Source: Alkalispirochaeta sp. (lineage in GTDB: Bacteria > Spirochaetota > Spirochaetia > DSM-27196 > Alkalispirochaetaceae). Taken from it: a stretch of 64,000 nucleotides of DNA. Of this stretch, positions 8,853 through 64,000 are shown piece after piece. The notes under the pieces were generated by a model that was not told the DNA's origin, made no database searches, and saw nothing but the letters and a program-made list of their open reading frames with translations. The stretch lies in the NCBI GenBank assembly GCA_965601925.1, contig OZ271854.1, forward strand, positions 4,256,001 to 4,320,000. The letters are read 5' to 3'. Both the position numbers and the translations under genes were made by a program. Each line of letters starts with the position of its first letter. Position 1 is the first letter of the stretch.

Positions 8853-8895
8853 CGTTTCGGGCGCGTCTCCCCGGTGTCTTTATCAGGGGAGCGTT

Positions 8896-8985
8896 CGTCG
8901 GTGTCGGTCGCTCAGCAGGCCCTACGGGCCAGAAGTCGCGCCCGCCACCGCCGCCCACACCCCGGCGTACTACTCGCCGGGGTGT
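8896..8985 (+). repeat. Dispersed repeat unit A (homologous to 57438..57558) ending in GC hairpin
   Basis: CGTCGGTGTCGGTCGCTCAGCAGGCCCTACGGGCCAGAAGTCGCGCCCGCCACCGCCGCCC then ACACCCCGGCG-N7-CGCCGGGGTGT. Confidence 0.75.
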
Positions 8986-9097
8986 CGCTTCCCTCCGGTG
9001 GATGGTCGGGGGAGACCGGACTCTGCTTCCAATTCCTCGGTCCGGCACGATATTGTGGAACGTATTGTTCCTTACGTCGGGAAGCCGCGCTCACTTC

Positions 9098-47299: not shown

Positions 47300-50296
47300 T
47301 CAGATGCCGAGCCGTAGAGCGATCCTCCTGCGAAGTTCCACCAGAGGCGGATACCCCTGATTGTCGGCATGTTCCAACAGGCGTTCGACGATCGCTAAGG
47401 CCTGCAGCACGCCGCCTTGGCTGAATAGGGTCTCCGCGCGGCGATACTGCTGCTCGTCGGTCGTGGAGAGGGCGACGGTCGCCTGCCCGCCCAACTGGAT
47501 GCGTAGTTGATCCAGCAAAAACTTCGCGTCGTTGTTGTTCGGATTGAGATCGACCGCCTCTTCCAGGAGCGATACCGCGACGACGACCTGGTCGCGGCTG
47601 CCACCCGAGAGACCGCTCGCGCGCTGAAAGAGTTGCGACGCTTGGCCGACGCGCGCCTGATCGATGGGGTTCGGCCGTAGGTTAAGGGCTATCTCCAGCT
47701 GCCGAATACGCTCCTGTATGCCCGGGAAGTCGGGATTAATCTCCGCCAACACCTCAAGTTCGCCGTACACCTCAAGAGGTCCCTCCTGATCGAGACGCGC
47801 AATCGCCGCCTCGTAACGCGCCGTGAAGACGGCGTCAAAATCGTCGGTGTTTTGAATCTGTGCGATCCGGAGCTCCAGGATACGCGCGTCCCAGTTGAGG
47901 GGCCTTACGTCGCGCACGTTCCGGAGATTCTCGATCGCCCGTTCGAAGAACGCGTTTGCCCGCCGATTCTCTCCTCGCTCGAGCAATCGCTCCGCCTCGT
48001 TGAAGTCCTCACGCGCGATGCTGAGATAGTTGCTCAAAATGGGATAGAGGGGATCGGTAATGGCGAGCTCGCGCCCCTCTTCCAGACTTAACGCGGCGGT
48101 CACAAGGCGGAGAAGGCGATCGATCTCGGTATTGGCCGCGACATTGGTCTGCTCCCACGATTGTTGGGCGGCGAGGAGCGTGTCGCGTGCGCCGATGTAC
48201 TCGTCTTGGTTATACAAGTTTTCGGCTTGGATCAACAGTTCTCGTACTCGGCGGACGACGACGACATTCTCCAGCTCTTGGAGTTCCAAACCGACCTCGC
48301 GAATCGCCGTATCGGCGGCACGTCGCAGCACGGGATCCTCGCGTAACGTAAGGGCGGTCAAAAAGGCCTCCTGCGCGGCATTGTAGTTGTTGCGCGCCGC
48401 ATTTACCTGAAAGGCGGCGATCGCCGTTCTCGCGTCGACGACGCGTTGTGTCGCCTCCTGTTGGAGTGCCGCAGCGCGGTCGATGAGCGACTGCGCCTCT
48501 TCCACGCCCGCCGCCGTGCGCTCCCGAAGCTCGGTAATACGCGTCCCCAACGCATCGAGTCTCTCTATCTCACGCCGAACCGTACTCGAATCGACGATAT
48601 AGTCCGCGTCACCCGCGAGCTCTTCGCGTGCGCTCTGTTGCTCAGCGCTCAACCGTTCGACGATCCGGGAGACCGCCCGATATCCCTCCAAGGCGCGGTC
48701 GGGATAGCGTACGGTACGTATCGAGCCCTCCTCCCCCGGGACTTCCTCCTCGATACCCGCGGTAAGGGGCGCAAATTCGATCAACTCCATCTCCTGAGCC
48801 GCGGCGATATCGTCCAAGTCCTCCGTCTGAGCGGAGGAGATCGCAACGGCGAGCGACTGCTCGCCGGCTATCGTCCGATCGAGTCCGTCGGCCCATTGGA
48901 GGTGGCCTCCATCGACGAGTTCGTCGATCGTCTCGTTGCGATACGCGTCGGGAAGCCCGATGATAGTCGCAAGCGTCTCCTCGTATTCATCGCCCCCGCG
49001 ACGCAGTGATGTGACGGTCGCGCGCGTTGCTTCCTTCCGCTCTCGAAGGACGGCGAGCTCTACGGTACGATCGAGCGATTGCTCGGTGACGCTCGCCATG
49101 ACGGCGCTGTAGGCGGCAAGACTCTCAGCCACCGCGGCGACGGCGCGTGGGTGAATGATAACGTGCGCCTCCTCAGGATCGAGTCGTTCGAGAATCGTCT
49201 CGAGAGTGGGTTGCGGTTCAAATACGCCGGCGAGAGCCGCCGCCGCCTGTTCCCAAAGTGCCGCCGCCGCGATCGCCGTCCGGTAGCTCTCGCCCGCCGC
49301 ATCGAACCGCTCTGCCGCGACCGCATCGTCGGCGATCCGCAAAAGATCGGCCGTGCGAGTACGGCCGGCGTCGGCCAACGGACCGATCGTGCCTCGATAC
49401 GCGCCCTCGATCGCGCTCACGATCCCCTCGTCTCCCCGATACTCGTTGCGACCCCGGGCAATAAAGTCCTGAAAGTTGAGATACCAGTCGACCGGATCGT
49501 CGGGAAATTGAAGCGGCACTTGCGACTTGATGACGGCAATACCCCGGGCTACCTCGTCGGCGGATGCGAGAATGCCGATGATACGACGCGCCTCATCGAA
49601 CAGGGGTGCGAGATCCCCCCGATTCAGAGACAACACGTCATCCCCCGCCGAGGCGAGGACGGCGCCGCCGGCCGCCTCGTAGGAGGGAAGCGCCTCAAAA
49701 AACTCCTCCGTTACCGCAGAAAGGTTCGCTACAGCCTGATTCACGGAGTTGACGAAGATATCGCCGTAGCCGCGCGCATCGAAGCGATCGCGCTGGAGAT
49801 CGCGTAGCTGAAGATACAAAGCGACGGCTCCGGTATAGTCGCCGCCGTCCAACAAGAGCCGCGCCTCGTCCATTTGCTCCTGGACGACGCTGCGGTCGAA
49901 GGCGAGTTGGGCCACGATACGCGCGTCCTGTACCTGCTCGACGACGCGTTCGTTGGGAAACTCATCGAGCGCTTCCATACGGTCGATAATCTCCAGCGTG
50001 CGTTCGATATCGTCGGGATTGTTCACGAGATTGTCGATCAGCTCTTCAAAGAGTACGTTGTACTCACCGCGAATCTGACGAATCGTACGCATGAGCGCCT
50101 CGGACTCCTGGATACGTTCCGGGTCCTCGCGCACCGTCTGCTCAAGGAGGAGAATCGCTTCGTTTATTCGGTTTTCCGAGATCAACTCTCGCGCCTGTCG
50201 AATCGGGTCCTCTTGCCGACCGGCCGCGGCAAGTGGTAGCGCGAGTGAGAGGAATATGATGCAAGTAAAAAGGTACGAGCGAAACGTTTTTTTCAT
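47300..50296 (-). CDS. Large exported alpha-helical/TPR-like protein
   Basis: Signal peptide MKKTFRSY...AAA; TPR-like segments (EAVDLNPNNNDAKFLL). Confidence 0.8.
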   Translation of the reverse strand: MKKTFRSYLFTCIIFLSLALPLAAAGRQEDPIRQARELISENRINEAILLLEQTVREDPERIQESEALMRTIRQIRGEYNVLFEELIDNLVNNPDDIERTLEIIDRMEALDEFPNERVVEQVQDARIVAQLAFDRSVVQEQMDEARLLLDGGDYTGAVALYLQLRDLQRDRFDARGYGDIFVNSVNQAVANLSAVTEEFFEALPSYEAAGGAVLASAGDDVLSLNRGDLAPLFDEARRIIGILASADEVARGIAVIKSQVPLQFPDDPVDWYLNFQDFIARGRNEYRGDEGIVSAIEGAYRGTIGPLADAGRTRTADLLRIADDAVAAERFDAAGESYRTAIAAAALWEQAAAALAGVFEPQPTLETILERLDPEEAHVIIHPRAVAAVAESLAAYSAVMASVTEQSLDRTVELAVLRERKEATRATVTSLRRGGDEYEETLATIIGLPDAYRNETIDELVDGGHLQWADGLDRTIAGEQSLAVAISSAQTEDLDDIAAAQEMELIEFAPLTAGIEEEVPGEEGSIRTVRYPDRALEGYRAVSRIVERLSAEQQSAREELAGDADYIVDSSTVRREIERLDALGTRITELRERTAAGVEEAQSLIDRAAALQQEATQRVVDARTAIAAFQVNAARNNYNAAQEAFLTALTLREDPVLRRAADTAIREVGLELQELENVVVVRRVRELLIQAENLYNQDEYIGARDTLLAAQQSWEQTNVAANTEIDRLLRLVTAALSLEEGRELAITDPLYPILSNYLSIAREDFNEAERLLERGENRRANAFFERAIENLRNVRDVRPLNWDARILELRIAQIQNTDDFDAVFTARYEAAIARLDQEGPLEVYGELEVLAEINPDFPGIQERIRQLEIALNLRPNPIDQARVGQASQLFQRASGLSGGSRDQVVVAVSLLEEAVDLNPNNNDAKFLLDQLRIQLGGQATVALSTTDEQQYRRAETLFSQGGVLQALAIVERLLEHADNQGYPPLVELRRRIALRLGI

Positions 50297-50390
50297 CCCT
50301 TCCCGACTCCAATGTATCACGGAGAGCGATACGACAGCTACTCGCGCAAAACGATGCTATATATAGAATAATCGGCATAGAAGCGATAGA

Positions 50391-51668
50391 ATGAAATCAG
50401 GAGACCGATTGAAACGGCGACTTCTTTCGACCATTGTCATCGCGATACTCGCCGTGGAATTCAGCGTAGCCGCCGGTCTGTCGGAAGACTCCTTCAGCGA
50501 TTGGTATGGAGACATTGCAGATATTACCTCGTCGGAGGATATCGAGAATACCGGTCTTACCGTGTTTCCCACCCTCACCATTCCCATGGGTGGTGAATAT
50601 GAGGCGTTGGGCAGCGCCTATACCGCCGGCGCCCGGGACGTCACCTTTCTCGAAGCCAATCCGGCGGCGAGCGCCAATCTTACCGATACCGAACTGGCCT
50701 TTTTTCACAACAACTTGATCGCCGATACAAATATGGAGGGCGTCGCCTACACGACGCGTATCGAGGACTTCGGAGTCGGGGCGGGAGGTAAGTTCCTGCA
50801 CGTCCCGTTTACCGAGTACGGCGACTTCGGCGAGCAACTCGGTACCGCGCGCTATATCGAAGCGGTCATCGCGGCCAACGCGTCCTACAACTTCTTCGAC
50901 AGTTTCTATTTCGACGGGGTTTCGGCGGGGGCGAATCTCAAGGTTGCCTACCGCAGCATTCCCGAGACGATTGCGCCGAACCAGTCGGCCGCAGGCGTCA
51001 TGGTCGATCTGGGTCTCCTGCATCGCTTTAATTTTCTCAAGTTCTATCCGTCCAGATCGCGAAACGTCTCCGTCGGAACGACCCTACGTAACTTCGGACC
51101 AACCGTGTTGGACGAGCCGCTGCCGGCGAGTTGGACCACCGGTCTGGGATACTCGCCGTTGCGCCCGTTGTTACTCACCTTCGACGTGAGCGTGCCGATG
51201 ACACCCTTTTCGTCGGTTCCGACCGAACCGGTAAGCTACGCCTCGGGTATGGCGGTCACCGTGACGGAGTTTTTTATCATGCGAGGCGGTTTTCAGCTGC
51301 GCGGCGGCAATCCCCGAATCACCATGGGCGGCGGCGTCGACATTCAAAATATGACTATCACGGTGAATTACACCCTGGATATGACGACTCAGCTCAGCGC
51401 GTTCGACCGTTTCAGTCTCCAGTTGGGCTTTGCGTTCGGCGACCGCGGGCGCGGGCAGCGTCAAGACCAGGTGCGCAACCTGTATCTCGATGCCCTGCAG
51501 GCATTTGCAAACGGCGATCTGGAACGAACGATCGAACTCACCGCCCAGGCGTTGGAACTCGATCCGTCGTTTCAGCCCGCCTCGGAAACGCTACAGATGG
51601 CGCGGCGCATGCTCGACCTGCAACGGCAAATGGACGCGATCCAAACGGGCGAGGATCTCGAAAACTGA
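50391..51668 (+). CDS. UPF0164 family (FadL/PorV-like) outer-membrane protein with C-terminal TPR
   Basis: ENTGLTVFPTLTIPMGG.YEALG.AYTA...D..F.EANPAAS, HNN.IAD; GDRGR then TPR (ALELDPSFQPA). Confidence 0.85.
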   Translation: MKSGDRLKRRLLSTIVIAILAVEFSVAAGLSEDSFSDWYGDIADITSSEDIENTGLTVFPTLTIPMGGEYEALGSAYTAGARDVTFLEANPAASANLTDTELAFFHNNLIADTNMEGVAYTTRIEDFGVGAGGKFLHVPFTEYGDFGEQLGTARYIEAVIAANASYNFFDSFYFDGVSAGANLKVAYRSIPETIAPNQSAAGVMVDLGLLHRFNFLKFYPSRSRNVSVGTTLRNFGPTVLDEPLPASWTTGLGYSPLRPLLLTFDVSVPMTPFSSVPTEPVSYASGMAVTVTEFFIMRGGFQLRGGNPRITMGGGVDIQNMTITVNYTLDMTTQLSAFDRFSLQLGFAFGDRGRGQRQDQVRNLYLDALQAFANGDLERTIELTAQALELDPSFQPASETLQMARRMLDLQRQMDAIQTGEDLEN

Positions 51669-51681
51669 CGTTCTGCAGCGG

Positions 51682-52485
51682 TTATCGATCTTTTCGGCGT
51701 CCGAACGACCGCAGCCACCCGGTGAAAGTACGGTTTATTGGAGAGTTCGCTATCGGACCGCGACCGGGCACCCTCTCACCGCGCGCAGTTCCCGTTAGCT
51801 CACGATCCGATAAGACGATGTAGGCCAACGCGTCGGTCGCCTCCAAAGCCGTGGTATCGCGCGAAACGCGGCGCAGAATGACCGGTCCGAACACTCCGTA
51901 ACAGTAGTACTGCGCCCCGTTGAGGATCACCGGCCCCGGGTCACCGCCCGTTACCAGCGTGGTCGCTATCGACCGGATCGACGGAACGCACCGTGTCGCC
52001 AACGAGTCGGTTTCATCGTCGGCGTCGTCGGCCGCCTCACGGCTGCGATAATGGAGGCGTCCTTGAGCGCCCAGTACAATAATTTTGTGATCGGAGAGAT
52101 CGATAAGATGTTCAATGAGCGCCGCTTGCGCCTCAATGCGGCCCTTCTTCAGAAGCGTCGAACGGCGCAGGAGGCGGTAGTACTCCTGGATCGCCGTTCC
52201 CAACGATCCGAGATTTCCCTCTTCGAGCGCATCTTTGTCCGACGCCAGCCGTAACAGTTCGCGTTCCACGGCTCGGTTGAGCCGCGTAAGCCTCGCCGGA
52301 AGGACAATGAGTGCAACGACCGTACCGATGAGTATCGCGGCGGCGGCCTCCAGTGCGATCGAGCGGTTGGCATCGGCGAATATGACAAGCGCCGACGCCG
52401 CAGCGACCGCAAGGATGAACAGGACTTGCGCCACCCGGATCATGCGTCGGGAGATAAGCAAGGTGCGTCGGCTCATCTCATCCAC
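51682..52485 (-). CDS. Hypothetical membrane protein
   Basis: Two N-terminal TM helices; last gene of ktr operon. Confidence 0.65.
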   Translation of the reverse strand: MDEMSRRTLLISRRMIRVAQVLFILAVAAASALVIFADANRSIALEAAAAILIGTVVALIVLPARLTRLNRAVERELLRLASDKDALEEGNLGSLGTAIQEYYRLLRRSTLLKKGRIEAQAALIEHLIDLSDHKIIVLGAQGRLHYRSREAADDADDETDSLATRCVPSIRSIATTLVTGGDPGPVILNGAQYYCYGVFGPVILRRVSRDTTALEATDALAYIVLSDRELTGTARGERVPGRGPIANSPINRTFTGWLRSFGRRKDR

Positions 52486-53191
52486 CCTCGACGATGCGGT
52501 GAATATCCTCCGACCGTCCTATGACCAACAGTCGATCTCCCTCCTCAATGATCGTTCCGCCGTCGGGCAGGATAAACCGTGCATACGCGACGTCCAGACC
52601 GCCCTCGGAAACGCCCTCCTCGACGCGCCGAACGCCGACGATGTTGATACCGTAGCGTCGACGGACGTCAAGCTGTTGCAACGAATGACCCGGAAACGAG
52701 TGCGGTGCATCGACGACGACGAACGAAAACCCGTCGTCGAGCTCCGCAAGACGCTCTATGCCGCTGTGGGCGATCGTCGCCGCCAACCGCACCGCCGCGT
52801 CTTGCTCGGGGTTGATCATCATCGTTACGCCCAACTTCTCCAAGATTCGTCGGTGCGTTCGCGACATGGCGCGAGCGTAGATGCTCTCGATGCCCATGTC
52901 TTGGACGTTGAGTGTCGCGATCACATTGCTCTCGGTGTTCTCGCCTATCGCGATTACCACGCACTCGCACGATTGTAGTCCCGCCTCGTCGAGCACGGCC
53001 GGGTCGGTCACGTCTCCGATGACGGCGCGATCTACGACGTCCCGTATCGCATTGACGTGCTCCTCGACGTGGTCGACGGCGATAACCTCGACGTCGGCCC
53101 GCCTGAACGCACGGCATAACGACTGGCCGAACGTACCCAGGCCGAGCACGCCGACGGTCTGTAATTCGCTCACCTTCGTATCTCCCCCCAC
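52478..53191 (-). CDS. ktrA: TrkA/KtrA family K+ uptake regulatory subunit
   Basis: GLGTFG, GDVTD...L..AG, RCK-C domain. Confidence 0.9.
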   Translation of the reverse strand: MGGDTKVSELQTVGVLGLGTFGQSLCRAFRRADVEVIAVDHVEEHVNAIRDVVDRAVIGDVTDPAVLDEAGLQSCECVVIAIGENTESNVIATLNVQDMGIESIYARAMSRTHRRILEKLGVTMMINPEQDAAVRLAATIAHSGIERLAELDDGFSFVVVDAPHSFPGHSLQQLDVRRRYGINIVGVRRVEEGVSEGGLDVAYARFILPDGGTIIEEGDRLLVIGRSEDIHRIVEGG

Positions 53192-53201
53192 TTCATTCCG
53201 A

Positions 53202-54560
53202 TTATCCGATCGTCAGTACGCCTTCGGGCACGCGTATGTCGGCTCCGCCGCGCTCGGGACGAAATGCCGCGAGAAGTGTCAGCGGCCCGAGCCTACCGAC
53301 GAACATCAACAGTATCACAACTGCGCGCCCCGGATCGCTCAGGTGCGGCGTAAGTCCCGCGCTCAGCCCGACCGTTCCGAGGGCCGAGACCACCTCGAAC
53401 ATGATCGACTCCAACGGCGCATCTTCGGTAATGGAGAGGACGACGCTCGCTGCAAGCGCGACCAGCACACCCGAAACGACCAAGACCATCGCCTGCGTGA
53501 TGAGCCGTCCCGACAGGCGACGGTTGAATATCCAAGCGTCGTGGCGGCGGGAAAAAAAACGTCTGAAATCGGCAAAAAGCGCCGCCACGGTGCCGATCTT
53601 GACGCCCCCCGCCGTTCCGCCCGAGGCGGCGCCGATAAACATGAAGGGAATCATCACTAGCAAGGTCGCGCGATTGAGAGAGGCGAAGGGCACGGTGTTG
53701 AATCCGGCGGTACGCAACGTTACGGACTGGAAGATCGCAGCAAGATACTTCCGGGGAAGCGTCATGCCTACGAAACTTCGCTGTCCCTCGATGAGATAGA
53801 TAAGTATCGCTCCCGAGACGATCAAGGCGCCCGTGCCGTAGAGCGCTACCCGTGCCGAGAGCGAACGGGGAGGACGGAGCCGCCTGAGCCGGAAGGTTCG
53901 GTGTGCCTCGCCGCGGAGGACCGTAATCGTACCGAACCCGATGCCCCCGGCAACGATGAGCGCCATCACCGTCAAATTGACGACCGGTGCGTATACAAAC
54001 CGCTCTAGACTGTCGGAGAAGAGCGCAAAGCCGGCGTTACAGAAGGCCGATACGGCGTGAAAGAGCCCGTACCACGCCGCCTGGAAAACGCCGTCCGTGT
54101 GTGAGTACATTGCCGCGGCGAGCAGCGCCGTTCCGGCCAGCTCGAACCCCACCGTTACCACAAGCATACGCCGCAACTGTACGCCGAGTGAGCTGTAGTT
54201 GTTCTCGTTCAACATGAATGAGAGAAGCTCCGCCTCACCCAATGAGAAGCGTTTGCGCACCAAAAAGACGGTCGCCATGGTGAAGACCATGATCCCCAGT
54301 CCACCGATCTGAATCAAAAGCAAAATCACGCCGTGCCCGAAGGGCGAGAATACCGTCGCGGTGTCCACCACGATCAGCCCCGTGACGCACACCGCGGAGA
54401 CGGCCGTAAAGAGCGCGGCTCCGAACGGTAGTGGAACGCCGTCGGCGGCGGCAATAGGGAGCGACAGAAGTGCCGCGCCCACGAGCGCCACGGACACAAA
54501 TGAGAGACTGACCAACCGTGCCGGTCGTCGCCACAGGAGGCGTATAATGAGTGTTACCAT
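53202..54560 (-). CDS. ktrB: TrkH/KtrB family K+ (Na+) uptake membrane subunit
   Basis: SAVCVTGL, SAFCNAGF, RTAGF, GTAGGVK, SALGTVGLS, GRLGP. Confidence 0.93.
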   Translation of the reverse strand: MVTLIIRLLWRRPARLVSLSFVSVALVGAALLSLPIAAADGVPLPFGAALFTAVSAVCVTGLIVVDTATVFSPFGHGVILLLIQIGGLGIMVFTMATVFLVRKRFSLGEAELLSFMLNENNYSSLGVQLRRMLVVTVGFELAGTALLAAAMYSHTDGVFQAAWYGLFHAVSAFCNAGFALFSDSLERFVYAPVVNLTVMALIVAGGIGFGTITVLRGEAHRTFRLRRLRPPRSLSARVALYGTGALIVSGAILIYLIEGQRSFVGMTLPRKYLAAIFQSVTLRTAGFNTVPFASLNRATLLVMIPFMFIGAASGGTAGGVKIGTVAALFADFRRFFSRRHDAWIFNRRLSGRLITQAMVLVVSGVLVALAASVVLSITEDAPLESIMFEVVSALGTVGLSAGLTPHLSDPGRAVVILLMFVGRLGPLTLLAAFRPERGGADIRVPEGVLTIG

Positions 54561-55534
54561 AATCGCCCCGCGCGGCGAATGACCGTCATCGTCGCGAGTC
54601 CGTCGTCGGCGCCCGAACGCGACTCGGCCGACGGATTGACGCGCAGCCGGACCGCCTCGGCCGCCATACCGGCAAAATAGCCGGTCGGCTCGGGCACCTG
54701 CACACCCATGCTTCGCAGCGAGCGGTATCCCGAATAGAACGGGCTCGGTCTACTCCGCCGCCACTCGCATATGCCGTTTCCTACCCTGATCTCTCCCGCC
54801 TGAAAACTGAGGGTGAGCTCGAGGTGCAGGTAATCTCGCTCGGCTCCGACCTCCAGCAGCACGGGAACGTCCCGTTCCGCGAGGCGGCCGTGCAAAAAGA
54901 CCGATGACGCGGCGGACCGATAGCGCCCTACTCGTCTCCGTAGCATAATCCGGTCGTCGGTCAGATAGTGGACGGCATCGACGAGGTGCGTCCCGTCGTG
55001 GAGAAAGACGCGATCGTGTCGCGCCGTACGTCCGAAAAAGAGGCGTGCCGCGACGGTAAGGAGGGTACCGAAGCGCTCCGAGGCGATCGCGTCACGCGCC
55101 GCGACGTAATCGCGTGAAAAGCGTCGCTCGTGGTTGACGACGATCCGCGTCGAGCCGTCGCGTTCCAGGCGGGCGATCCGACGCGCCGAGGCGACCGAAT
55201 GCGCCACCGGCTTCTCGCACACTACCACCGGTATATCCGCGCGAACCGCTTGGGTCACGTATCGCTCATGGCTGTCGGGATGGGTCGCCACCACGAGGAT
55301 ATCGGGCTCGACGGTACGGATCATCTCCTCGCAGGAGCCGAACCCGGGCGCGTTCCACCGCTCGGCGAACGCCGCCGTTCGGCTCTCCTCGATATCGAAG
55401 CCGCCGGCGATGACACAATCGGGGCGTGCGGCGAACGCACCGGCGTGACTCGCCGGTTTTTCGCGTCGCGGATCGTCTTCCAGCAGCGACGCGATGCGGC
55501 CGAGCCCGACTACGGCGACGCGATACGGCTCCAT
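54554..55534 (-). CDS. Gfo/Idh/MocA family oxidoreductase
   Basis: VVGLGRI, CEKP, NHERRF, HDGTH. Confidence 0.9.
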   Translation of the reverse strand: MEPYRVAVVGLGRIASLLEDDPRREKPASHAGAFAARPDCVIAGGFDIEESRTAAFAERWNAPGFGSCEEMIRTVEPDILVVATHPDSHERYVTQAVRADIPVVVCEKPVAHSVASARRIARLERDGSTRIVVNHERRFSRDYVAARDAIASERFGTLLTVAARLFFGRTARHDRVFLHDGTHLVDAVHYLTDDRIMLRRRVGRYRSAASSVFLHGRLAERDVPVLLEVGAERDYLHLELTLSFQAGEIRVGNGICEWRRSRPSPFYSGYRSLRSMGVQVPEPTGYFAGMAAEAVRLRVNPSAESRSGADDGLATMTVIRRAGRLW

Positions 55535-55548
55535 AGACACCGACGCCC

Positions 55549-56130
55549 CTACCGGAGGTCTCGCACGTCGGTCACCATCATTCCCGCCGCGTTCGCCGCC
55601 TCGATACCCCAGACGCTATCTTCGAATACCTGACAGTGCGCCGGCGGAACTTCCAGCCGCGCCGCGCATTCCAGAAAGACGTCCGGCGCCGGCTTCGGGC
55701 GTTCGACCTCATCGACGGTAACCAACGTCTGAAAGAGCGAGGAGAGGCCGGTCGAGCGTAGAACGATGTTCGAAATGCCGAAATGCTCGTTTGTGGCGAC
55801 TCCGATGGGGAGTGTTCCCAGGTACCGGTGTACGATATCCAGCACGGCGCCGATCGGTTGAATCAAGGGGGTGTGTCGCACGAAGGCTTGATCTTTGGCC
55901 GTGGCGATCTCGTCTCCCGGGAGCGATCTCCCGAACTCATGTTCCAAAAACGCGACGATATCGGGACTGGTTCGCCCGCCGACGCGGTCGAAGAGCTCAC
56001 GGGTCATGTCGATATCGTACGGCTCCATGGTCTCGCGCCAAGCCTGCCAGTGGACCTCCATCGTATCGACCAACGTCCCGTCCATATCGAAAATAAGCGC
56101 CCTGGCCTCATCCGATACGACGGCGTTCAT
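55549..56130 (-). CDS. HAD family phosphatase (beta-PGM/YqaB-like)
   Basis: FDMDGTLVDT, KPAPD, FEDS..G..AA..AGM. Confidence 0.92.
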   Translation of the reverse strand: MNAVVSDEARALIFDMDGTLVDTMEVHWQAWRETMEPYDIDMTRELFDRVGGRTSPDIVAFLEHEFGRSLPGDEIATAKDQAFVRHTPLIQPIGAVLDIVHRYLGTLPIGVATNEHFGISNIVLRSTGLSSLFQTLVTVDEVERPKPAPDVFLECAARLEVPPAHCQVFEDSVWGIEAANAAGMMVTDVRDLR

Positions 56131-57356
56131 ACCTTCAATCTCCCGTTCTCCATGATCACCCGTGTCGATCCGTCGGCGAGCGTCGCCTCGACACGCATCG
56201 CGTCGCTTCCGATCATCACATCGGTATGCTGTTGACTCCGACTCGCGCCGACTGCGTCGAGTTCGTCCTCACTCATCGACGAGCCGCCCTCAATGCAGGT
56301 CGGATAGGCAAACCCGAGAGCAAAGTGTGAGGCTGCGTTTTCATCCAGGAGGATGGTCTCAAAGACGCGATTGGACCGTGCGATCGGCGAGGCTACGTCG
56401 ACCAGCGCGATTTCGCCCATCCGGCGACTTCCGGCGTCAACGGCGAAGTACGCCTCCAGTACATCGCGACCGCGCTCGGCGCCGAACTCGACCACCTCAC
56501 CGTTTTTGAACACGAACCACGCACCCTCGACGAGAGCCTCAAAAATACGCACCGGCTTGGTGATCGTCGCACGTCCCTCGACGCCGGGCGCGTACGGTGT
56601 CGTGTAGACCTCCTCGGTGGGAACGTTGGGCAGAAAGGGAATACCGCTCTGCGTTACCGAACCGCCGCCGTGCCATCGCGCCTTCTCGTGCAGAGGGACG
56701 CGGAGGTCGGTCCCGTCGGCGAGGAAGTGCAGCTCTCGCACCCGGAGCCCGTCCAACGTGCGGCAACGCGCCTTTAGGGTCTCGCCGTGGCTCTCCCAAT
56801 AGTGCGCCGGATCGTCCTCGTGTAGGCGCAGAATCGGAGTCAGCACCTTCCATAGCGCGAGTAGCGCCTCGTCACCGACGGGCATGTCGAGTACCCGCGC
56901 CGCCCACGCCGGAGTGGGCGCCGCCATCACGGTCCACTGCGACTCGTCGTTGGCGAGTGCCCGGCGAAGGGGGAGGTCCACCTTTCCGAAGGCGGCGGAA
57001 ACGCGACTTGAGCGCGTCGGATCGATGCCGTCGAGAGCCGCCGGATCGGCCGGACTCTTGATCGCCAAAAGCGCCCACGTGTCGCCGACCATCTCCTCGT
57101 TGCGCGCGGCGCGGTATGTGGGGGTGAAGTCGAGAAACTCTTCCCGGCTGTGATCGACGCGAGCGCGCAACAGGCGCGACGACTCGAGCCGTATGTCGAC
57201 GTAACCGGCGCCCCTACGATACGCCTCCTCGGCAACGGCGACGGCGGCGTCGATGTGCTCCGGCTCCATCTTGATACCGAGTCGCTGGCCGGGCTGTAGA
57301 TTGAGCGCGGTCATAGCGATCCGCGCAAAGTGTTGCAGGTAGTCTGTGAGCGTCAT
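56127..57356 (-). CDS. Aminopeptidase, M29 family (AmpS/PepS)
   Basis: NVPTEEVYT, GEIALV, DENAASHFALG.AY, H.DVMIG. Confidence 0.93.
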   Translation of the reverse strand: MTLTDYLQHFARIAMTALNLQPGQRLGIKMEPEHIDAAVAVAEEAYRRGAGYVDIRLESSRLLRARVDHSREEFLDFTPTYRAARNEEMVGDTWALLAIKSPADPAALDGIDPTRSSRVSAAFGKVDLPLRRALANDESQWTVMAAPTPAWAARVLDMPVGDEALLALWKVLTPILRLHEDDPAHYWESHGETLKARCRTLDGLRVRELHFLADGTDLRVPLHEKARWHGGGSVTQSGIPFLPNVPTEEVYTTPYAPGVEGRATITKPVRIFEALVEGAWFVFKNGEVVEFGAERGRDVLEAYFAVDAGSRRMGEIALVDVASPIARSNRVFETILLDENAASHFALGFAYPTCIEGGSSMSEDELDAVGASRSQQHTDVMIGSDAMRVEATLADGSTRVIMENGRLKV

Positions 57357-57437
57357 GGCGCCATCTTAGCACGGGCGTGGAAGACCTTGCATAGCGCTCG
57401 CATGCGCCTTCCCGGGGTTCTAGTAGTCGGGACCGGC

Positions 57438-57558
57438 CGTCGGTGTCGATCACTCAGCAGGCCCTACGGATGCGTTCCTCGTACCTGCGGTACGCATCCG
57501 CCGGGCCAGAAGTCGTGCTCGCCACCGTCGCCCGATCCCGGCGGGTTTTAGCCGGGGA
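57438..57558 (+). repeat. Dispersed repeat unit A with inserted REP-like hairpin
   Basis: Matches 8896..8985 apart from a 35-nt insertion containing GGATGCGTTCCTCG-TACCT-GCGGTACGCATCC. Confidence 0.75.
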
Positions 57559-57600
57559 GGCGTGTCCTCAGGGGAACGTTGTAGAGACGGATCGTCAAAT

Positions 57601-57659
57601 TCGGTCACTCAACAGGAGGAAGGTTGCGTTCCTCGCCAACGGCTCCGGTACGCAACCGA
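57601..57659 (+). repeat. Further copy of TCGGTCACTCA.CAGG + REP-like hairpin
   Basis: GGTTGCGTTCCTCGCC...CGGTACGCAACC 57622-57657; reverse complement match to 9122..9163. Confidence 0.72.
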
Positions 57660-58092
57660 CATGGAGTCGCGACCGTCACTGACGACCGGTACCGGCACGG
57701 TGTTGCTGGGATGGCTCGGCCTCAGTCGATGTTGGGGAGATGAATCCATACCGGACGGATACCCACACTACACGGACGAGATGGTGGTGGCTAAGCCTCC
57801 GCCTTTTTCGGGTTGCATCGTCAGTATGGGCGCGCCGTTGTGCAGCCGGCCCATCAACAAATCAATCGTCTCACGAGCGCATTCCGGGATTGGTGTGGAT
57901 CAACTATCGACGGATCGGTCGAGCCGACACGCTTTGTGCGACATTTCTATGCGTGTCGATCCCGATTGAATCGTTGCATGTGCTCGGGTGTCTCTCCATG
58001 ACCGACTCATCGATGCCTCTGCGTTCGGTTTCTCATCGCTTCGTCGCTCCGATGAGGTTTTGGATAACACTAAGTCTCGGCACTTAGGGACG

Positions 58093-59355
58093 CTACGATA
58101 CCCAAAGATCCGAGTCGTACTTCGCGCGGTCGTCACGCAGCAACTTAATGACTTCGTCACCGCGGCCAAGCTCCTCGAATCGGTCATAGAACCCACCGTT
58201 CACGACAAACCAATACAGAACGTATGCGTTGGGCCGGCGAAACGGGGGCATGCTGGACGGGTTCGTCGGGTTAAACTCGCTCATCGGACGGCGCGTCGCC
58301 GCATCCAGCGCATCTTGCAGGGTCGCCAGCGCTCTGTCGTACTGTTCCAGCCCTAAATACGCCATCGCCAACCAATAGTTTCCGCCAACATATTTCGCCG
58401 TCTGAACCATGAGGTACTCGTTATCTCGCTGCTCCGAAGTGAGGTCGACGATCTCCTCGTACTCACCAGTCCGGTACAGTACTTCGAGAATCCGTGAATA
58501 GTAAGACAATCGCCCAATCGAAAGGCGCTCGACATCGATGGTCCGGCTTACCTCGAGCGCTCTATCATAGGCGGCATGCTGAACATAACCGCTGAACACA
58601 TAGAGCCGCGTGTCGTAATCGTTCGCGGCGGCTACCTCTTCTGCCGCAAGCAACGCCCTTATGTGGTAGAAACCAGAGTCAAGATCACCGGCCCGCACAC
58701 TTATGATTTGATCAGCTTCAACCACCGATCGGGCGTCGGGATCAAGAATCGATAGATCATCCGGGTCGACTTGATCCAAGTACGGCGTGTAGTATTCGAT
58801 GGGCGCGATCGACAAGACGTAACGAGGTGATAAGAAACCGGCGAGCGTAAACTCGCGTTCCGTCAACGGTGGCGACGTAGCCATTATGTGCTCTAAGTAG
58901 ATGTTAACAAAGTCTCGAACAGGGTGTGTGTGATGCCAACTCGCCTCGTATAAGTAACTGTAGGTACCTTCAAACGGTCGCCCAGTGACACGACCATACT
59001 CGCGCAAGTACAGCAAACTGTCGATGTCTCGGTCCGCAAGAAGCATTCCGATTCCCATCGTCCGCAGGTATCGTGCATGGTCGTCCTCGAAGACTTCATC
59101 ACGATGATACGAGACAAAGTCCATGAGTTGTGATACGCGTTGTGGCGCATCGAACCGACCCCTGGGAACGACGACCGATCCACGCTCGATACGCTCGAGA
59201 TCGGCTTGCCAATCGTATGGGTATTGCGGCGCGTCGGGGTCATTGCGAACACCGAGCCGCGAAGAACGCGCTGGGCCGCTACACGCGACGAGGCCAATAG
59301 TTACAACCACGATCGCGAGCGCCGCCGGGAGTCGTTTAGTTTTCCAGAAGGCCAC
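58093..59355 (-). CDS. Lipoprotein with C-terminal TPR-like repeats; candidate immunity protein
   Basis: VVTIGLVA-C lipobox; YWLAMAYLGLEQYDRALATLQDAL TPR; Tyr-rich, AT-richer DNA; start overlaps upstream gene by 20 nt. Confidence 0.75.
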   Translation of the reverse strand: MAFWKTKRLPAALAIVVVTIGLVACSGPARSSRLGVRNDPDAPQYPYDWQADLERIERGSVVVPRGRFDAPQRVSQLMDFVSYHRDEVFEDDHARYLRTMGIGMLLADRDIDSLLYLREYGRVTGRPFEGTYSYLYEASWHHTHPVRDFVNIYLEHIMATSPPLTEREFTLAGFLSPRYVLSIAPIEYYTPYLDQVDPDDLSILDPDARSVVEADQIISVRAGDLDSGFYHIRALLAAEEVAAANDYDTRLYVFSGYVQHAAYDRALEVSRTIDVERLSIGRLSYYSRILEVLYRTGEYEEIVDLTSEQRDNEYLMVQTAKYVGGNYWLAMAYLGLEQYDRALATLQDALDAATRRPMSEFNPTNPSSMPPFRRPNAYVLYWFVVNGGFYDRFEELGRGDEVIKLLRDDRAKYDSDLWVS

Positions 59356-62300
59356 TGATTAGTTCCTCGTAGTCTCGCACCCATTGATCTGCATCCGCGA
59401 TATCCTGATACGTCGGTCGAGTAAGCGGATCATTGTTGATTCGATACAAATCTTCCAGGTAATCAGGACTCATCAACGAACTGTATCGATAACCGCTTTG
59501 TACCTTTAAGTTTGCCATATTCATGGTTTCAGTATACTCCCGTAGCCAACTCGACGAAGTCAGGCCGGTTAGTGCCTGTGTCCCGGCGTTGAGGCTTTCG
59601 AAGTCAACGTAGCCGGGGACTTCGATGTACTGATCCATCTCGACGCCGGGATATGTCGGAAGAAGGGTATCGGGATCGTATTCTTCTCCCACGATGTCCG
59701 TATCCTTCATGTGACCTCCGTGGAACAGAAGGTTCAACTCGTCGGGGTCGGTGATGCCGTCCTCGTAGATCCGGTCGCCGAGCCACCGATATCGTGAACT
59801 CCCGACTTCGCCGAGCTCCTCGATGTGGGCGTCCCGCATTCCCGGTTCTATTGCAAACGCCAGGTCGATCTCCGCTTCTTCGGCGAGGCCGAAGATTGTG
59901 TTGTCGCGGCCACTCTCGTGGTGCCAAGACGTCTCACCTTCCGGCAACGTAAACAGGTCGAAGATCTCGTTGGCGGCGGTATAGCTTGTCGCGAACGCGC
60001 TGGTCACCCGCGCCGCTTGCGCGGTGATTGCGGCGGTGCTGGCTGTGGTGGCCAGTGCCGTCGCGGTCGTGAGCGTTCTGCTCAATCCGGCAGTTACCAG
60101 TGTTGCCGCAATGGAAACCCCGGATACCAACGCGTTATGCGCAATCTGCTCATCGGAAAGCGGCGCGGCCGACACGTGTCGATGGTGTTCTCGGCCCCTT
60201 ATGTTGGCAAACCACGTTGATACGTTGCGGGCGTCGCCACCGAGCGTGACGTTAAAGAAATTCTCGATCGGCTCGGGCACCGCGTCGAGGGTGGGATACA
60301 CTCCGGCGTATCCGGTCTCCCGCGCTTGCTCCGCGGTAAACGGTCGTGCGTACTGCGGTTGACTTTGGTCGTTTATCTGCCAGTTCTCCGTTGTCCCTAC
60401 CTGCATGTACGTCTCGGCGAGAAACTCCGTGTCGTTCGCGAGTCCATGGGCCACCAGCTGGCTGTAGGTCTCCGCCTGGAAGACGTACGCGACTCCTTCG
60501 ATGGCATTGCCGGCGACGTGCGTTCCTTCGTGGGACATCACTGCCGCGAGTTTTGAGGCGGTATCGGTGTCGTTTGCAAGGAAGCTTTCATCGAACACCA
60601 CGCGGTCGGAGCCGCTCCCGGCGTCGTACATCCCGAGTGCGTCGCCTTCCAGATCACGGAAATCGGCTTGGAGCTCGCGGTTCCACAATGCATCAGCCGT
60701 CAGGTGGTTGTTCTCGATGTTGGTGTACCCGAGACGGTTGACACCATTCAGGATCGCCCGGTTCTCCCGTCCCCGCTGCGTCCCCAACGCTCCACCGACC
60801 TTCGCACCCGTCACTCGTGCGATGTCGCCGATACCCGCAAGACTCTGTCCCACAAGGTCCACACCGACATCGTAGCTCCCACCGCCAACGCCAAATAGTG
60901 CCCCGTTTCCCCCGAGTTGCAGGTTGATCAATCCGCCGGAGAGTCCCTTTCGTTCGAGACCGGTGACAAACGTCCCGTCCGTCGCCGCAGGCACCTCACC
61001 GGGCGCACGTCGGTTGAAGATCCGCGCGTCCAAAATACTCAAGCTCGTACTGCCGTCGATCAGATAATCCGTGGCCGCTCCGATCCCACTCGCCGTCAAC
61101 CTCGCCGCGCTTGAGAGGGCTCGGAGATCGAAGGTGTTGCCCGCCAGCTTGTCACCGATACCGTCGGTCGTCAGGAAGTTCTCCAGCGTGCCGTTCACAA
61201 ACCCCTGCGCCGCGCCGCCGGCGTAGCCCGCTACCGCACTCTCGCCGAACGTCGCGCGGCGAAAACCTCGTTCGTCAAAGTCCACGTCCCAGTCGCCGTC
61301 GATTGAGAAAGAGTTGATGGCGCTGCTCACCGCCGTCGTCGTCACCGCTTGCGCCGTGCTCATCCCCACGTTCACCGCCGTCTGCGTGATCGCCTTGCTG
61401 CCTTCCACGGCCGCCGTCGCCGCCGTTCCCAGTTTGTCGAATCCATAACCTACACCCGCCGTCGCCAAGCTCACCGCCGTGCTCTTCGCGAAGCTGCCAA
61501 AGGCGTCGTCCGCGTCCGCGTATCCGGTCGCCACGTCCGCCATCGTGAAGACCGCATTCGTCGCTACCGATGCGAGAACGGCGCCGAATCCCGCGCCCCC
61601 TGTGGCGATACCCACCGCCACGCTGGTCACCGTCGTGATGTTCGGCGCGCCGAAGAGCCCGTCCGGGTTCCCGTCGTTGTCCGCGTCGTCGTCCCACATC
61701 CGCATCCGGTGCAGTGGTACGTCAATCATCGCCAACCCGCGCCCCACCCGCGCCTCGTTCCGGTAGAAGTCCTCCATGATCCGGCCCATCTCGCCGTAAC
61801 CCGCTTCCCGCACCTCTTCCGGTTTGTTCGTCTTCATTACCGGTGCGTAGCCCACGTGGTAGTTGAACAGTCCCTCCGTATCGTGGTGCAGGTACTCCTC
61901 CTCGCCGCTCTCCTCGTTCTCGCGCGTTCGGTTGTAACCGGCGGCCCGCGTCCAGCTCGCCTCCACCGCTGCAAATCGGTCCGCCAGCGCCCCGTTCAGC
62001 TCCTCGATACTCATCACCGCGGCTCCGTCGGTCTTCTGCGCCTCGCTCCGTCCGAAGATCAGGATCTGGTACCGCTCCATCTCCTCGTACGCCGCGTCGA
62101 TCATTGCCCGTATACCCCGACTCGACAAGCCGTCCAGCGCCTCCTCGGAAAGGTCCACCGTCGCTTCAAACACCGGTACGGTGAAGTCGCGGTAGTCTTC
62201 CACGCGGTGCGTCTCCCGCTCGATCCCGCCGAACAGCGTCTCGTCGATGATTACCCTTCTGTTCCACTCGCGTCCCGATAGCCGGTACCCCGCTCGTTCC

Positions 62301-64000
62301 ATGGTGGTGTCGATGTTCTCCGAGACCGACCGGTTCGCCTCGTCGATTCCGTCATCGACCGCTACGATGCTCTCGCGGATCTGTTCGTTCATCTGCAGCG
62401 CCGTGACCCGCATCGCGTGTTGTTGAATCTCCTCGCCCAGTGCGTCCGCCACGCCGCGAGCGCTCTCGGCGCTGTCGGTGGTCGACCGTACGCCGGGGAG
62501 GTAGGCCGCTATCACCACCGTCTCTCCGGCTCGCCCCGCCATCGCACCCGCGGCGCTGATCATATCGGTCAGGAGCGTATCGTCGGTCGCCTGCCGCACG
62601 GCGAGCTCGAGGTCGCCCGTTTCAATCGTCAGGTCCGGTACGGCGATCGCTTCGCTCCGCGCGATGAGGTACTCGGCGTCTAACCCCATTTGACGCGCCG
62701 CGGCCTCGCTTCCGGCGCGTACCGCGTGGTGCGTCGCGCCGTCGATCCATTCATCTCGGGATACGATGAGCGCTTCGTAACGCAGGTCCCACACCGCCGC
62801 CGCCTCGGCGTACTCTTCGGCGGTCTCTTCTTGAAAGCGTTTGCGCTGGCCCGCCAGACGGATGTATCCGTGATCCCACTCCTCGGCACCCGCGGCGACG
62901 AGGCTCTCCATCCTGTTGCTCCAGCTGTCGTGGCGCCGCGTCAGCGCCTCGTACTCGACGGTGAACTGGTGCACGTACTCCGTCTGTACGCTCGTCATGC
63001 GGGCTGCGGCGGCGTCGTAAATGTGGTTGGAAATAATCGAGAGTTGCACGGCGCGCGCCTCGTCGTTGGTGTTCGCCGGGTCGTCCGCAACGCTCTGGAG
63101 CGACGTAAGGCGGTATGCCATGTGGTCTGCGGTGTCGTAGGTTTGGCCGGCGAAGCGCGCGCGGGCGGCCACCTCCAGGTCCGCCTCGCTTACATCCTCG
63201 CCGCGCAGATAGCGGCCCAACACCTCTTCGTAGTTCACCTGATCGGTGTGTTGCTCGGTCTGCAGTTCGACGACGCGCACGTTCACCGCTTCGCCCGCTG
63301 CAACCATGTCGCGTGCCAGACGCTCCTGCGCCGCGGCCATGACCGAGAGGCTCGTCGCCGTTTCCGAGGCGTTGCCGGTCGCCACCACGTCGCGGATCGC
63401 CTGTTGGAGCCGCGCGGAGGTGCCCGCCACACCCGCCGCGGTCAGCGATGCAATGACCTCGTTTGCGTCGGGACGGTTTCCGGTAATGCGTGCTACATCG
63501 GCGGCCAATGTGTTCTGCTCACCGATGGTTCGACTCCCGTCGGCAAACAGCTGCATCGTGATCGATCTCTGATCCTTGCCCGACAGATCGGGGTCCTGGC
63601 GGCGCAGCTGCTTGATGCGCCGTCCCTCGCGCTTCTTTCCGGGTGAGCGGTACCACTTCGTCAAGCTCCGTTGCCGATCGCGCGCCTCGTCATCGACGAA
63701 GTCGTGCGCAATTTTTGACACGTCGTTGTTTATCGCCCTGACCTGTCTCTGGTCCAACTCGACCGGCCCGCCGCCCTCGGTCAGCATCGCAAAGAAGCGA
63801 TACGCGCCGCGACTCAAACTGGTCGCTCGGACTCGGTTGTAGGCGGCGCGCGTCCGCTGTTCCAGCTCCCAGTTCAACGTTCCCTCCCTGATCGTCAAAC
63901 CGGTATATCTATGAGTGTACGGATCCATTCGCACATTGGCCTTGTCCATCAACTTGACGAAGGTCTGATTGGTCAGAATCGACGCCTCACCCACGCGATG
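59336..64000 (-). CDS. Very large protein (5' end probably outside window) with coiled coils, Gly/Ala-rich hydrophobic segments, HExxH motif and distinct C-terminal domain; candidate polymorphic toxin
   Basis: Open at least 1552 codons to the window edge; AAVMSHEGTH at 60518-60532; DDDADNDGNPDG Ca-binding-like loop. Confidence 0.75.
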   Translation of the reverse strand, partial: HRVGEASILTNQTFVKLMDKANVRMDPYTHRYTGLTIREGTLNWELEQRTRAAYNRVRATSLSRGAYRFFAMLTEGGGPVELDQRQVRAINNDVSKIAHDFVDDEARDRQRSLTKWYRSPGKKREGRRIKQLRRQDPDLSGKDQRSITMQLFADGSRTIGEQNTLAADVARITGNRPDANEVIASLTAAGVAGTSARLQQAIRDVVATGNASETATSLSVMAAAQERLARDMVAAGEAVNVRVVELQTEQHTDQVNYEEVLGRYLRGEDVSEADLEVAARARFAGQTYDTADHMAYRLTSLQSVADDPANTNDEARAVQLSIISNHIYDAAAARMTSVQTEYVHQFTVEYEALTRRHDSWSNRMESLVAAGAEEWDHGYIRLAGQRKRFQEETAEEYAEAAAVWDLRYEALIVSRDEWIDGATHHAVRAGSEAAARQMGLDAEYLIARSEAIAVPDLTIETGDLELAVRQATDDTLLTDMISAAGAMAGRAGETVVIAAYLPGVRSTTDSAESARGVADALGEEIQQHAMRVTALQMNEQIRESIVAVDDGIDEANRSVSENIDTTMERAGYRLSGREWNRRVIIDETLFGGIERETHRVEDYRDFTVPVFEATVDLSEEALDGLSSRGIRAMIDAAYEEMERYQILIFGRSEAQKTDGAAVMSIEELNGALADRFAAVEASWTRAAGYNRTRENEESGEEEYLHHDTEGLFNYHVGYAPVMKTNKPEEVREAGYGEMGRIMEDFYRNEARVGRGLAMIDVPLHRMRMWDDDADNDGNPDGLFGAPNITTVTSVAVGIATGGAGFGAVLASVATNAVFTMADVATGYADADDAFGSFAKSTAVSLATAGVGYGFDKLGTAATAAVEGSKAITQTAVNVGMSTAQAVTTTAVSSAINSFSIDGDWDVDFDERGFRRATFGESAVAGYAGGAAQGFVNGTLENFLTTDGIGDKLAGNTFDLRALSSAARLTASGIGAATDYLIDGSTSLSILDARIFNRRAPGEVPAATDGTFVTGLERKGLSGGLINLQLGGNGALFGVGGGSYDVGVDLVGQSLAGIGDIARVTGAKVGGALGTQRGRENRAILNGVNRLGYTNIENNHLTADALWNRELQADFRDLEGDALGMYDAGSGSDRVVFDESFLANDTDTASKLAAVMSHEGTHVAGNAIEGVAYVFQAETYSQLVAHGLANDTEFLAETYMQVGTTENWQINDQSQPQYARPFTAEQARETGYAGVYPTLDAVPEPIENFFNVTLGGDARNVSTWFANIRGREHHRHVSAAPLSDEQIAHNALVSGVSIAATLVTAGLSRTLTTATALATTASTAAITAQAARVTSAFATSYTAANEIFDLFTLPEGETSWHHESGRDNTIFGLAEEAEIDLAFAIEPGMRDAHIEELGEVGSSRYRWLGDRIYEDGITDPDELNLLFHGGHMKDTDIVGEEYDPDTLLPTYPGVEMDQYIEVPGYVDFESLNAGTQALTGLTSSSWLREYTETMNMANLKVQSGYRYSSLMSPDYLEDLYRINNDPLTRPTYQDIADADQWVRDYEELISGLLEN

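Follow-up and report, generated by a model that had tools for sequence, protein, structure and literature searches.

What does the giant gene at the edge of this stretch of Alkalispirochaeta sp. DNA encode, and how does it relate to the lipoprotein gene that overlaps its end? The window (the whole stretch analysed, 64,000 nt; contig OZ271854.1, positions 4,256,001 to 4,320,000) ends within an open reading frame (ORF) on the minus strand, 59336-64000, and the original prediction, made from the letters of the window, proposed that this ORF and its neighbour form a polymorphic toxin-immunity module. Judged by the genomic tests described here, the locus is very probably a polymorphic toxin system. 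The ORF, given previously as at least 1552 aa, is open for 1554 codons inside the window. Its start sits at window-equivalent position 68689, 4.7 kb past the window edge, so the window holds only the C-terminal half (residues 1564-3117) of a carrier protein of 3117 aa. The N-terminal half, outside the window (G000:C1:4320001-4324689, G000 being the host genome), comprises a hydrophobic signal-like segment at the N-terminus and a conserved Trp-spaced helical domain (residues about 126-401), which is the marker of the carrier family.

A tblastn search of G000 revealed two further full-length carriers, B (3110 aa, 61% identity) and C (3070 aa, 57%), with truncated carrier copies standing behind both. 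These paralogs are 57-61% identical to the window protein (locus A) up to about residue 2750-2780, beyond which the tips differ; identity reaches 0.98-1.0 within residues 1-300 but drops to 0.12-0.20 past residue 2800. Loci B and C additionally contain seven orphan cassettes, each a repeat of the carrier end or a duplicate of an adjacent tip, that terminate in different tips. Neither the C-terminus nor the downstream gene was conserved in paralogs or relatives, in keeping with the constant N-terminus and swapped C-termini expected from the original prediction. All 12 partner genes analysed in G000 encode an N-terminal hydrophobic segment, and a lipobox was recognised by pattern in five. Ten tip-partner junctions were measured, of which eight overlap and two lie at 2-3 nt, and partner GC content is 0.43-0.55. 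Duplicated tips were found to have related partners (B_o3/B_o4, 56%; C_o1/C_o2, 36%). The tip of C matches M23 above the cut-off, and two B orphans match M23 below it. Over their first 1 kb the three carrier genes hardly differ in DNA (L001:11733-12801), and the run contigs collapse this part at 2-3 times depth, which points to a recent gene conversion affecting the N-terminus. An ORF for an integrase-core transposase, by eye of the IS3 type (G000:C1:1325842-1327000, L003), splits locus B between two near-identical tip cassettes; other copies lie at 2184129 and 4227264. One sister cassette ends with a second HExxH domain.

The same arrangement extends across the phylum. Among 301 sampled genomes the N-terminal domain was detected in 52 by single query and in 62 by profile; most of the ORFs concerned measure 2000-4500 aa, and Treponema and Leptospira are represented. 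Ten members were looked up, among them proteins of Leptospira montravelensis, L. bandrabouensis, L. koniambonensis, Treponema socranskii and T. pectinovorum; their source names were hypothetical, M23 family or 'polymorphic toxin-type HINT domain-containing protein', and two clusters were nameless. Scanning of 13 whole relatives identified M23 in three, C39_2 in one and PT-HINT in two, one of which continues into Ntox8. After exclusion of open-ended ORFs and of ORFs shorter than 300 aa, 51 complete tips fell into 30 BLAST clusters; M23 was matched at E<=0.01 in 9/30 tips and above the cut-off in four. The 23 partners scanned included DUF2750 behind the Ntox8 tip and Imm-NTF2-2 behind another, while some are generic binders (SH3, LRR, ankyrin, MORN, F5/8-type). 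DUF2750 (Imm16) is described as the immunity protein of Ntox8 in the accessible text of PMC3482391.

Tips and partners also travel together: the window pair recurs in L031, the B_o1 pair in G019 and the B_o2 pair in G030. Orphan tip/partner cassettes with carrier homology occur at loci B and C of G000 and in G028 and G030. The latter two genomes, each a single contig, hold arrays of three to six orphan cassettes (L021 in G028; L017-L019 in G030), together with neither a full carrier nor the export lipoprotein described below, and these arrays are likely immunity collections. With tips that vary, cassettes that stand as orphans and relatives bearing known toxin and immunity domains, the sequence data support the toxin-immunity module that had been proposed. 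Outside the phylum, no plasmid matched the carrier and a search of proteins of 491-2000 aa was blank, which is weak evidence. Partners that follow HxxC- or C39-like tips (L004:1066-2082, L050, L053, L057, L062, L067) repeatedly contain an F5/8-type C domain (PF25302), in the carrier family and in the TIGR04388 branch discussed below alike; these partners are a candidate unnamed immunity family. A further unannotated tip family with hydrophobic helices was seen in L032, L034 and L035, with an ankyrin-repeat protein next to it in L032. Labels of YkuD-like, papain-like and JAB-like, given to some tips by eye from their motifs, were unconfirmed by Pfam and the PDB.

The window's own variable tip (residues 2915-3117; 59336-59947, minus strand, as are all features of this gene pair) is a mostly helical putative toxin of lower GC. 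A profile of it, searched against 1.84 billion representatives, gave seven matches, one of them L031's own tip; with L021 included, the family comprises nine aligned sequences, all at the C-terminus, whose conserved part is residues 2915-3117. The three matches long enough for context belong to the same carrier family, but carry an HExxR module. As it is found behind both HExxH- and HExxR-type modules, the tip family has been shuffled independently. The original prediction called the C-terminal region unrecognised, and indeed the tip had no match to Atlas features (all below 0.9), PDB sequences, Pfam, Foldseek or VIA-align. Its predicted structure has a predicted local distance difference test (pLDDT) score of 57 overall and a best structural Z of 4.9; the hydrophobic part, on which a likeness to colicin-like pore formers with a buried hairpin would depend, lies under 50. 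The tip is a new small family and, the model being only partly confident, a candidate for a new fold.

The adjoining gene (58093-59355) encodes the 420-aa lipoprotein, a putative cognate immunity protein, and its overlap of 20 nt with the carrier stop was confirmed. Its designation as a TPR (tetratricopeptide repeat) lipoprotein held in part: a lipobox-like LVAC lies at residues 22-25, but the TPR signal consists of sub-cut-off one-repeat Pfam matches (best E 0.0018). A single homolog was detected (19-23% identity; E 3e-8 in the local set), right behind the homologous tip in L031. A search of 7999 candidates returned only the lipoprotein itself and the L031-type protein; no paralog was found in G000, and single-protein scans gave no further partner loci for the tip family. 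Since the partner appears to be exported, the tip would act at the inner membrane or within the periplasm. The reported GC spot counts (40, 23 and 28 of 60) were exact. The drop across tip and partner is real, but modest, and begins only near residue 2915: GC is 0.638 for the carrier, 0.624 for residues 2781-2914, 0.536 for residues 2915-3117 and 0.554 for the lipoprotein, against 0.601 for the genome, with the tip and the lipoprotein within the lowest 6-7% of same-size tiles. In two of four read runs, which together represent one sample at most, possibly the assembly's own source, a single contig with zero differences covers the lipoprotein and the tip.

Ahead of the tip lies a candidate releasing protease (residues 2630-2787; 60329-60802) containing His2720-Glu-x-x-His2724 and Glu2731. 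The module was modelled at pLDDT 84.7 and its structural neighbours are mostly zinc peptidases (selecase, abylysin, AsaP1, deuterolysin and Wss1; Z up to 7.1); no Foldseek match reached E 0.001 and no single family stands out. The His, Glu, His and later Glu are invariant in all seven aligned copies. With its HExxH helix, third ligand and predicted fold, the modelled module is a zincin. Across the family, HExxH occurs in eight sequences, whereas 31 have at the same place HExxR-D-G, a later Glu and usually a His; in two Leptospira members the module is replaced by HINT. Because it is exchangeable with HINT just before the tip, the zincin is read as a releasing protease, and the model and position make it likely that it releases the tip. 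The releasing peptidase proposed originally therefore fits in predicted fold and position, but HExxH is not invariant. The nearest named Atlas clusters include the effector proteases M85/M91 (score 0.86-0.88), which is a lead only.

Both halves of the 3117-aa protein lack any Pfam or NCBIfam family above cut-off, and acidic residues (D+E) make up 10-25% of each 150-aa block. Every motif quoted in the original prediction was located (residues 2332-2344, 2351-2377, 2714-2724 and 2730-2735). A conserved core, identified by profile match (residues about 1910-2335; 61685-62962), begins where the Trp-spaced repeat of the N-terminus recurs, the profile detecting both copies. It is followed by the acidic DxDxDG-like loop (residues 2332-2344; 61658-61696), which is present as described in the window protein but is no family constant, six of the seven members caught by pattern having a shorter loop. 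The Gly/Ala/Thr-rich hydrophobic helices (residues 2351-2377; 61559-61639) are the most hydrophobic segment of the protein and could possibly aid in membrane crossing. Between zincin and tip, a poorly conserved Ala/Thr-rich linker (59948-60328; pLDDT under 50) contains one hydrophobic helix (residues 2849-2867; 60089-60145).

How might so large a protein leave the cell? Within 10 kb upstream of 20 carriers we found genes for AcrB-family RND (resistance-nodulation-division) proteins in 12, often paired, HlyD-type membrane fusion proteins (MFP) in 12, Big_5 lipoproteins in 11 and TolC in 10, as well as TPR proteins and small lipoproteins; some part of this cluster accompanies 14 of the 20 (BLAST clustering and Pfam, with 61 of the 137 upstream ORFs, picked for lying in or near the cluster, scanned by Pfam). 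The inner-membrane proteins are ACR_tran, and no ABC transporter was seen among the scanned ORFs. The cluster lies upstream or downstream of carriers, in several gene orders, in Treponema-, Leptospira- and other families. The original prediction advised a search for secretion genes upstream. None lies at the window's locus, but a complete cluster stands beside the paralogous carrier B and divergent from it (G000:C1:1348721-1361428; L086:721-13428), with genes for a TPR protein, a small lipoprotein, TolC, an MFP, two Big_5 lipoproteins and two AcrB-like proteins. G000 has several other full-length RND genes. The one RND protein of G000 that was examined did not match the pattern used for the AcrB proton-relay region and may be atypical.

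At a best E<=1e-55, a threshold set after the scores had been viewed (generic Big_5 proteins match 154/301 genomes at 1e-10), the cluster lipoprotein was detected in 72/301 genomes, namely 60/62 carrier-positive and 12/239 carrier-negative ones, where the carrier and lipoprotein profiles share source genomes and related genomes are not independent, for which reason a Fisher test of the counts was set aside. Three of the 12 lipoprotein-only genomes hold a divergent carrier core. In an order-level sample of 60 genomes, the carrier core was found in 13, the lipoprotein in 10 and both in seven. Two of the three lipoprotein-only genomes of this sample were examined, and both have divergent carriers beside the cluster. 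Of the six carrier-only genomes, G028 and G030 have orphan cassettes as their sole copies and lack the N-terminal domain, G004 gave no N-terminal match, and the other three are fragmented drafts. The N-terminal domain and the cluster lipoprotein are thus jointly absent from G028 and G030. Given a polymorphic toxin system, the carrier would probably be exported by this dedicated RND-TolC cluster.

Comparison with known systems was made to place the carrier. The nearest relative is TIGR04388, which we take to be Lepto_longest and to be defined by an intein/HINT ahead of a variable tip. Membership was rejected: there was no match in G000 at the 45-bit cut-off of the model, and relatives matched only below it. 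The search was sound, since the model exceeds 2000 bits in both G131 and G109. A remote similarity in the Trp-spaced repeat was nevertheless detected between TIGR04388 genes and the carrier family (E about 1e-8 locally, 1e-4 to 1e-5 otherwise), and the gene neighbourhood of TIGR04388 matches that of the carriers (TolC, Big_5, small lipoprotein, MFP and RND). Both are giant proteins with variable tips, orphan cassettes and partners. They differ in that some Leptospira genomes hold both types as separate genes, and in that the carrier family spans the phylum, often with a zincin in place of HINT; Pfam and NCBIfam detect no HINT in the window protein and HINT in 2/13 relatives scanned. On these comparisons the carrier family is a remote sister of TIGR04388 with the same cluster, and not a member. 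LA_3725 probably belongs to the TIGR04388 group. According to the accessible text of PMC4751964, LA_3725 carries PT-HINT and such domains mark polymorphic toxins; in the part of PMC2387172 available, LA3725 is listed alongside LA3730, a lipoprotein, and LA3733, an outer membrane efflux protein. Thus, as far as these portions go, one remote branch had been noticed in passing. PT8 is a validated Leptospiraceae toxin in 10.1101/2021.10.19.465003; as the available part does not name its carrier, we claim no link to the carrier family.

As in the polymorphic toxin systems outlined in the accessible portions of PMC3482391 and PMC4436062, we find a constant trafficking N-terminus, a releasing peptidase or HINT, a variable tip, an adjacent partner and orphans that repeat the carrier. 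Unlike those systems, the carrier domains have no Pfam or NCBIfam model, and the link to RND-TolC is absent from the export routes given in those portions. The original statement that RHS, FHA and LXG are lacking holds for all 3117 aa; neither carrier half matched an RHS, CDI/FHA, LXG/WXG, PAAR, VgrG, MuF, SpvB, PrsW, PVC/eCIS or DUF4157 family. MafB/MafI of Neisseria, as presented in the available part of PMC4436062, likewise have a signal peptide, a lineage-restricted N-terminal domain, an optional intein, orphan modules and several loci per genome, but here there is no DUF1020 match, carriers are 2000-4500 aa, tips are mostly envelope-directed and partners exported. An HExxH zincin ahead of a toxin is shared with the PVC-metallopeptidase and DUF4157 peptidases in the accessible text of PMC3482391; here, in contrast, the module is internal rather than N-terminal, shows no DUF4157 match, and no injection-system genes were seen nearby. 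The word 'leptospira' is missing from the searched main text of that paper. A literature search outside subscription journals, as far as the texts were accessible, found no paper on the carrier family or on an RND-TolC route for it, though supplements may list members. Type I secretion and tripartite RND pumps place TolC and an HlyD-type MFP beside a giant exported protein. The present clusters differ in having an AcrB-family pair rather than an ABC transporter, a substrate with an N-terminal signal, and Big_5 lipoproteins and a TPR protein as members. The carrier falls in none of the named classes tested, and our verdict, drawn from sequence comparison, is a putative polymorphic toxin system whose trafficking class is new.

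A non-coding hairpin repeat of 150-180 bp precedes the orphan cassettes at loci B and C. An nhmmer model built from G000's own copies gave 28 matches in that genome, 11 at >=120 bits, and seven of those 11 lie in loci B and C. The repeat stops exactly at the onset of carrier homology in the orphans, at differing codons (2145, 2255, 2307 and 2503); a fixed repeat end and a variable partner end suggest element-driven rearrangement. All four repeat junctions lie at or within 3 nt of ACG(A/G), a pattern noticed post hoc with a background of 0.16-0.23 each. The repeat had no match in Rfam, and no Y1/RAYT transposase was found in G000 (the control matched 6/14). It is possibly an element resembling a MITE (miniature inverted-repeat transposable element) or a REP (repetitive extragenic palindrome). 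Further copies lie outside toxin loci (window 8852-9032, minus strand; G000:C1 2359841, 3936971, 4931384 and others), and another is found 3' of the carrier locus in G019 (L025:9824-9986). Repeat comparison also identified a degenerate copy with a partial second copy, non-coding, at 57397-57740 of the window (minus strand). The flanking genes at 47300-57356 are ordinary, encoding an M29 aminopeptidase, a HAD hydrolase, a Gfo/Idh/MocA oxidoreductase, TrkH/TrkA and a UPF0164 protein; a 1006-aa protein without clear family is also encoded there.

On balance we favour, with some reserve, a carrier with swappable tips that would act as an antibacterial toxin, neutralised by the lipoprotein and exported by a dedicated TolC-MFP-RND cluster. 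The mechanism would build on what is observed directly, namely the constant body, variable tip, tip-specific partner and orphan cassettes. The signal segment would send the carrier via Sec to the periplasm, from where the AcrB-like pair, MFP and TolC may move this long helical protein through the outer membrane or display it there, assisted by the Big_5 lipoproteins and the TPR protein; carriers A and C would be served in trans. The zincin module is predicted to sever the tip, which would then attack a neighbouring cell at its envelope, on the side that faces the periplasm. An envelope target is proposed because sister tips are wall hydrolases and 12/12 G000 partners carry export signals. For the window's tip, membrane damage and an unrecognised envelope enzyme are favoured about equally. 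Recombination with orphan cassettes would renew the tip. The widest form of the proposal is more tentative and, to our mind, somewhat doubtful: that heterodimeric AcrB-type RND proteins, MFP, TolC and Big_5 lipoproteins constitute a phylum-wide spirochaete secretion system exporting or displaying helical polymorphic toxins of 2000-4500 residues from the periplasm, with tip release by interchangeable zincin or HINT modules, cassettes generated at the hairpin repeat and a new toxin fold in the window's tip.

Several observations weigh against the favoured reading. The weakest step is the activity of the window's own tip, which, besides lacking a Pfam or PDB match (pLDDT 57), shows no assignable catalytic signature. 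The L021 tip homolog is followed by a 416-aa lipoprotein not detectably related to that of the window (hhalign E 0.03, probability 1.7%, rank 3 of 41 partners). HExxH is found in only eight members, HExxR in 31 and neither in many complete members, and the two module types align weakly (E 5e-4 over 36 columns). The window's locus has neither orphan cassettes nor export genes, 6/20 carriers have no cluster inside 10 kb upstream, no carrier core was detected in 9/12 lipoprotein-only genomes, and the limits attached to the co-occurrence counts above also count here. The passage of a Sec-exported 340-kDa protein through TolC has no explanation. In a rather unlikely alternative, the carrier is a polymorphic toxin that exits by type II secretion, vesicles or lysis, while the RND-TolC cluster serves otherwise, in small-molecule export, self-protection or assembly. 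RND pumps are known exporters of small molecules and metals, the carrier signal is of Sec type, G000 has its other full-length RND genes and some genomes hold the lipoprotein with no carrier detected; yet the linkage is kept in Treponema- and Leptospira- families and beyond, with several arrangements of the genes and on either side of the carrier, both parts are lost together in two single-contig genomes, and the same cluster stands beside the remote TIGR04388 branch.

A surface-anchored filament or adhesin is an improbable explanation, in which variable tips would serve in recognition or in remodelling of the wall of the cell itself or of prey, and the partner would be a chaperone or regulator. 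It would suit the very long acidic helical body, the many M23-like tips (with weak scores), the generic binders among the partners and a window tip devoid of an assignable catalytic signature. PT-HINT with Ntox8 and DUF2750, and Imm-NTF2-2, occur on the same carrier family, however, and orphan tip/partner arrays are kept after carrier loss, as an immunity collection predicts. Least credible to us is a toxin family in whose window copy the zincin itself is the toxic domain or the tip has decayed or become inactive. The proximity to M85/M91 in the Atlas (0.86-0.88, a lead only), the second HExxH in a sister cassette and the lack of orphans at locus A are consistent with it, whereas the zincin is common to copies with different partners, the tip family is conserved at the C-terminus in nine sequences, and gene and partner are intact.

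The favoured reading, of an exported carrier with exchangeable toxic tips, would make this family a candidate phylum-wide weapon for interbacterial competition, including in oral Treponema and in Leptospira species; its proteins are now annotated mostly as 'hypothetical proteins'. It would point to a possible use of RND-TolC machinery for very large proteins. The about 30 tip types and their partners, many unannotated and many wall-directed, are leads for new antibacterial enzymes, and the orphan family TIGR04388 would gain a functional context.

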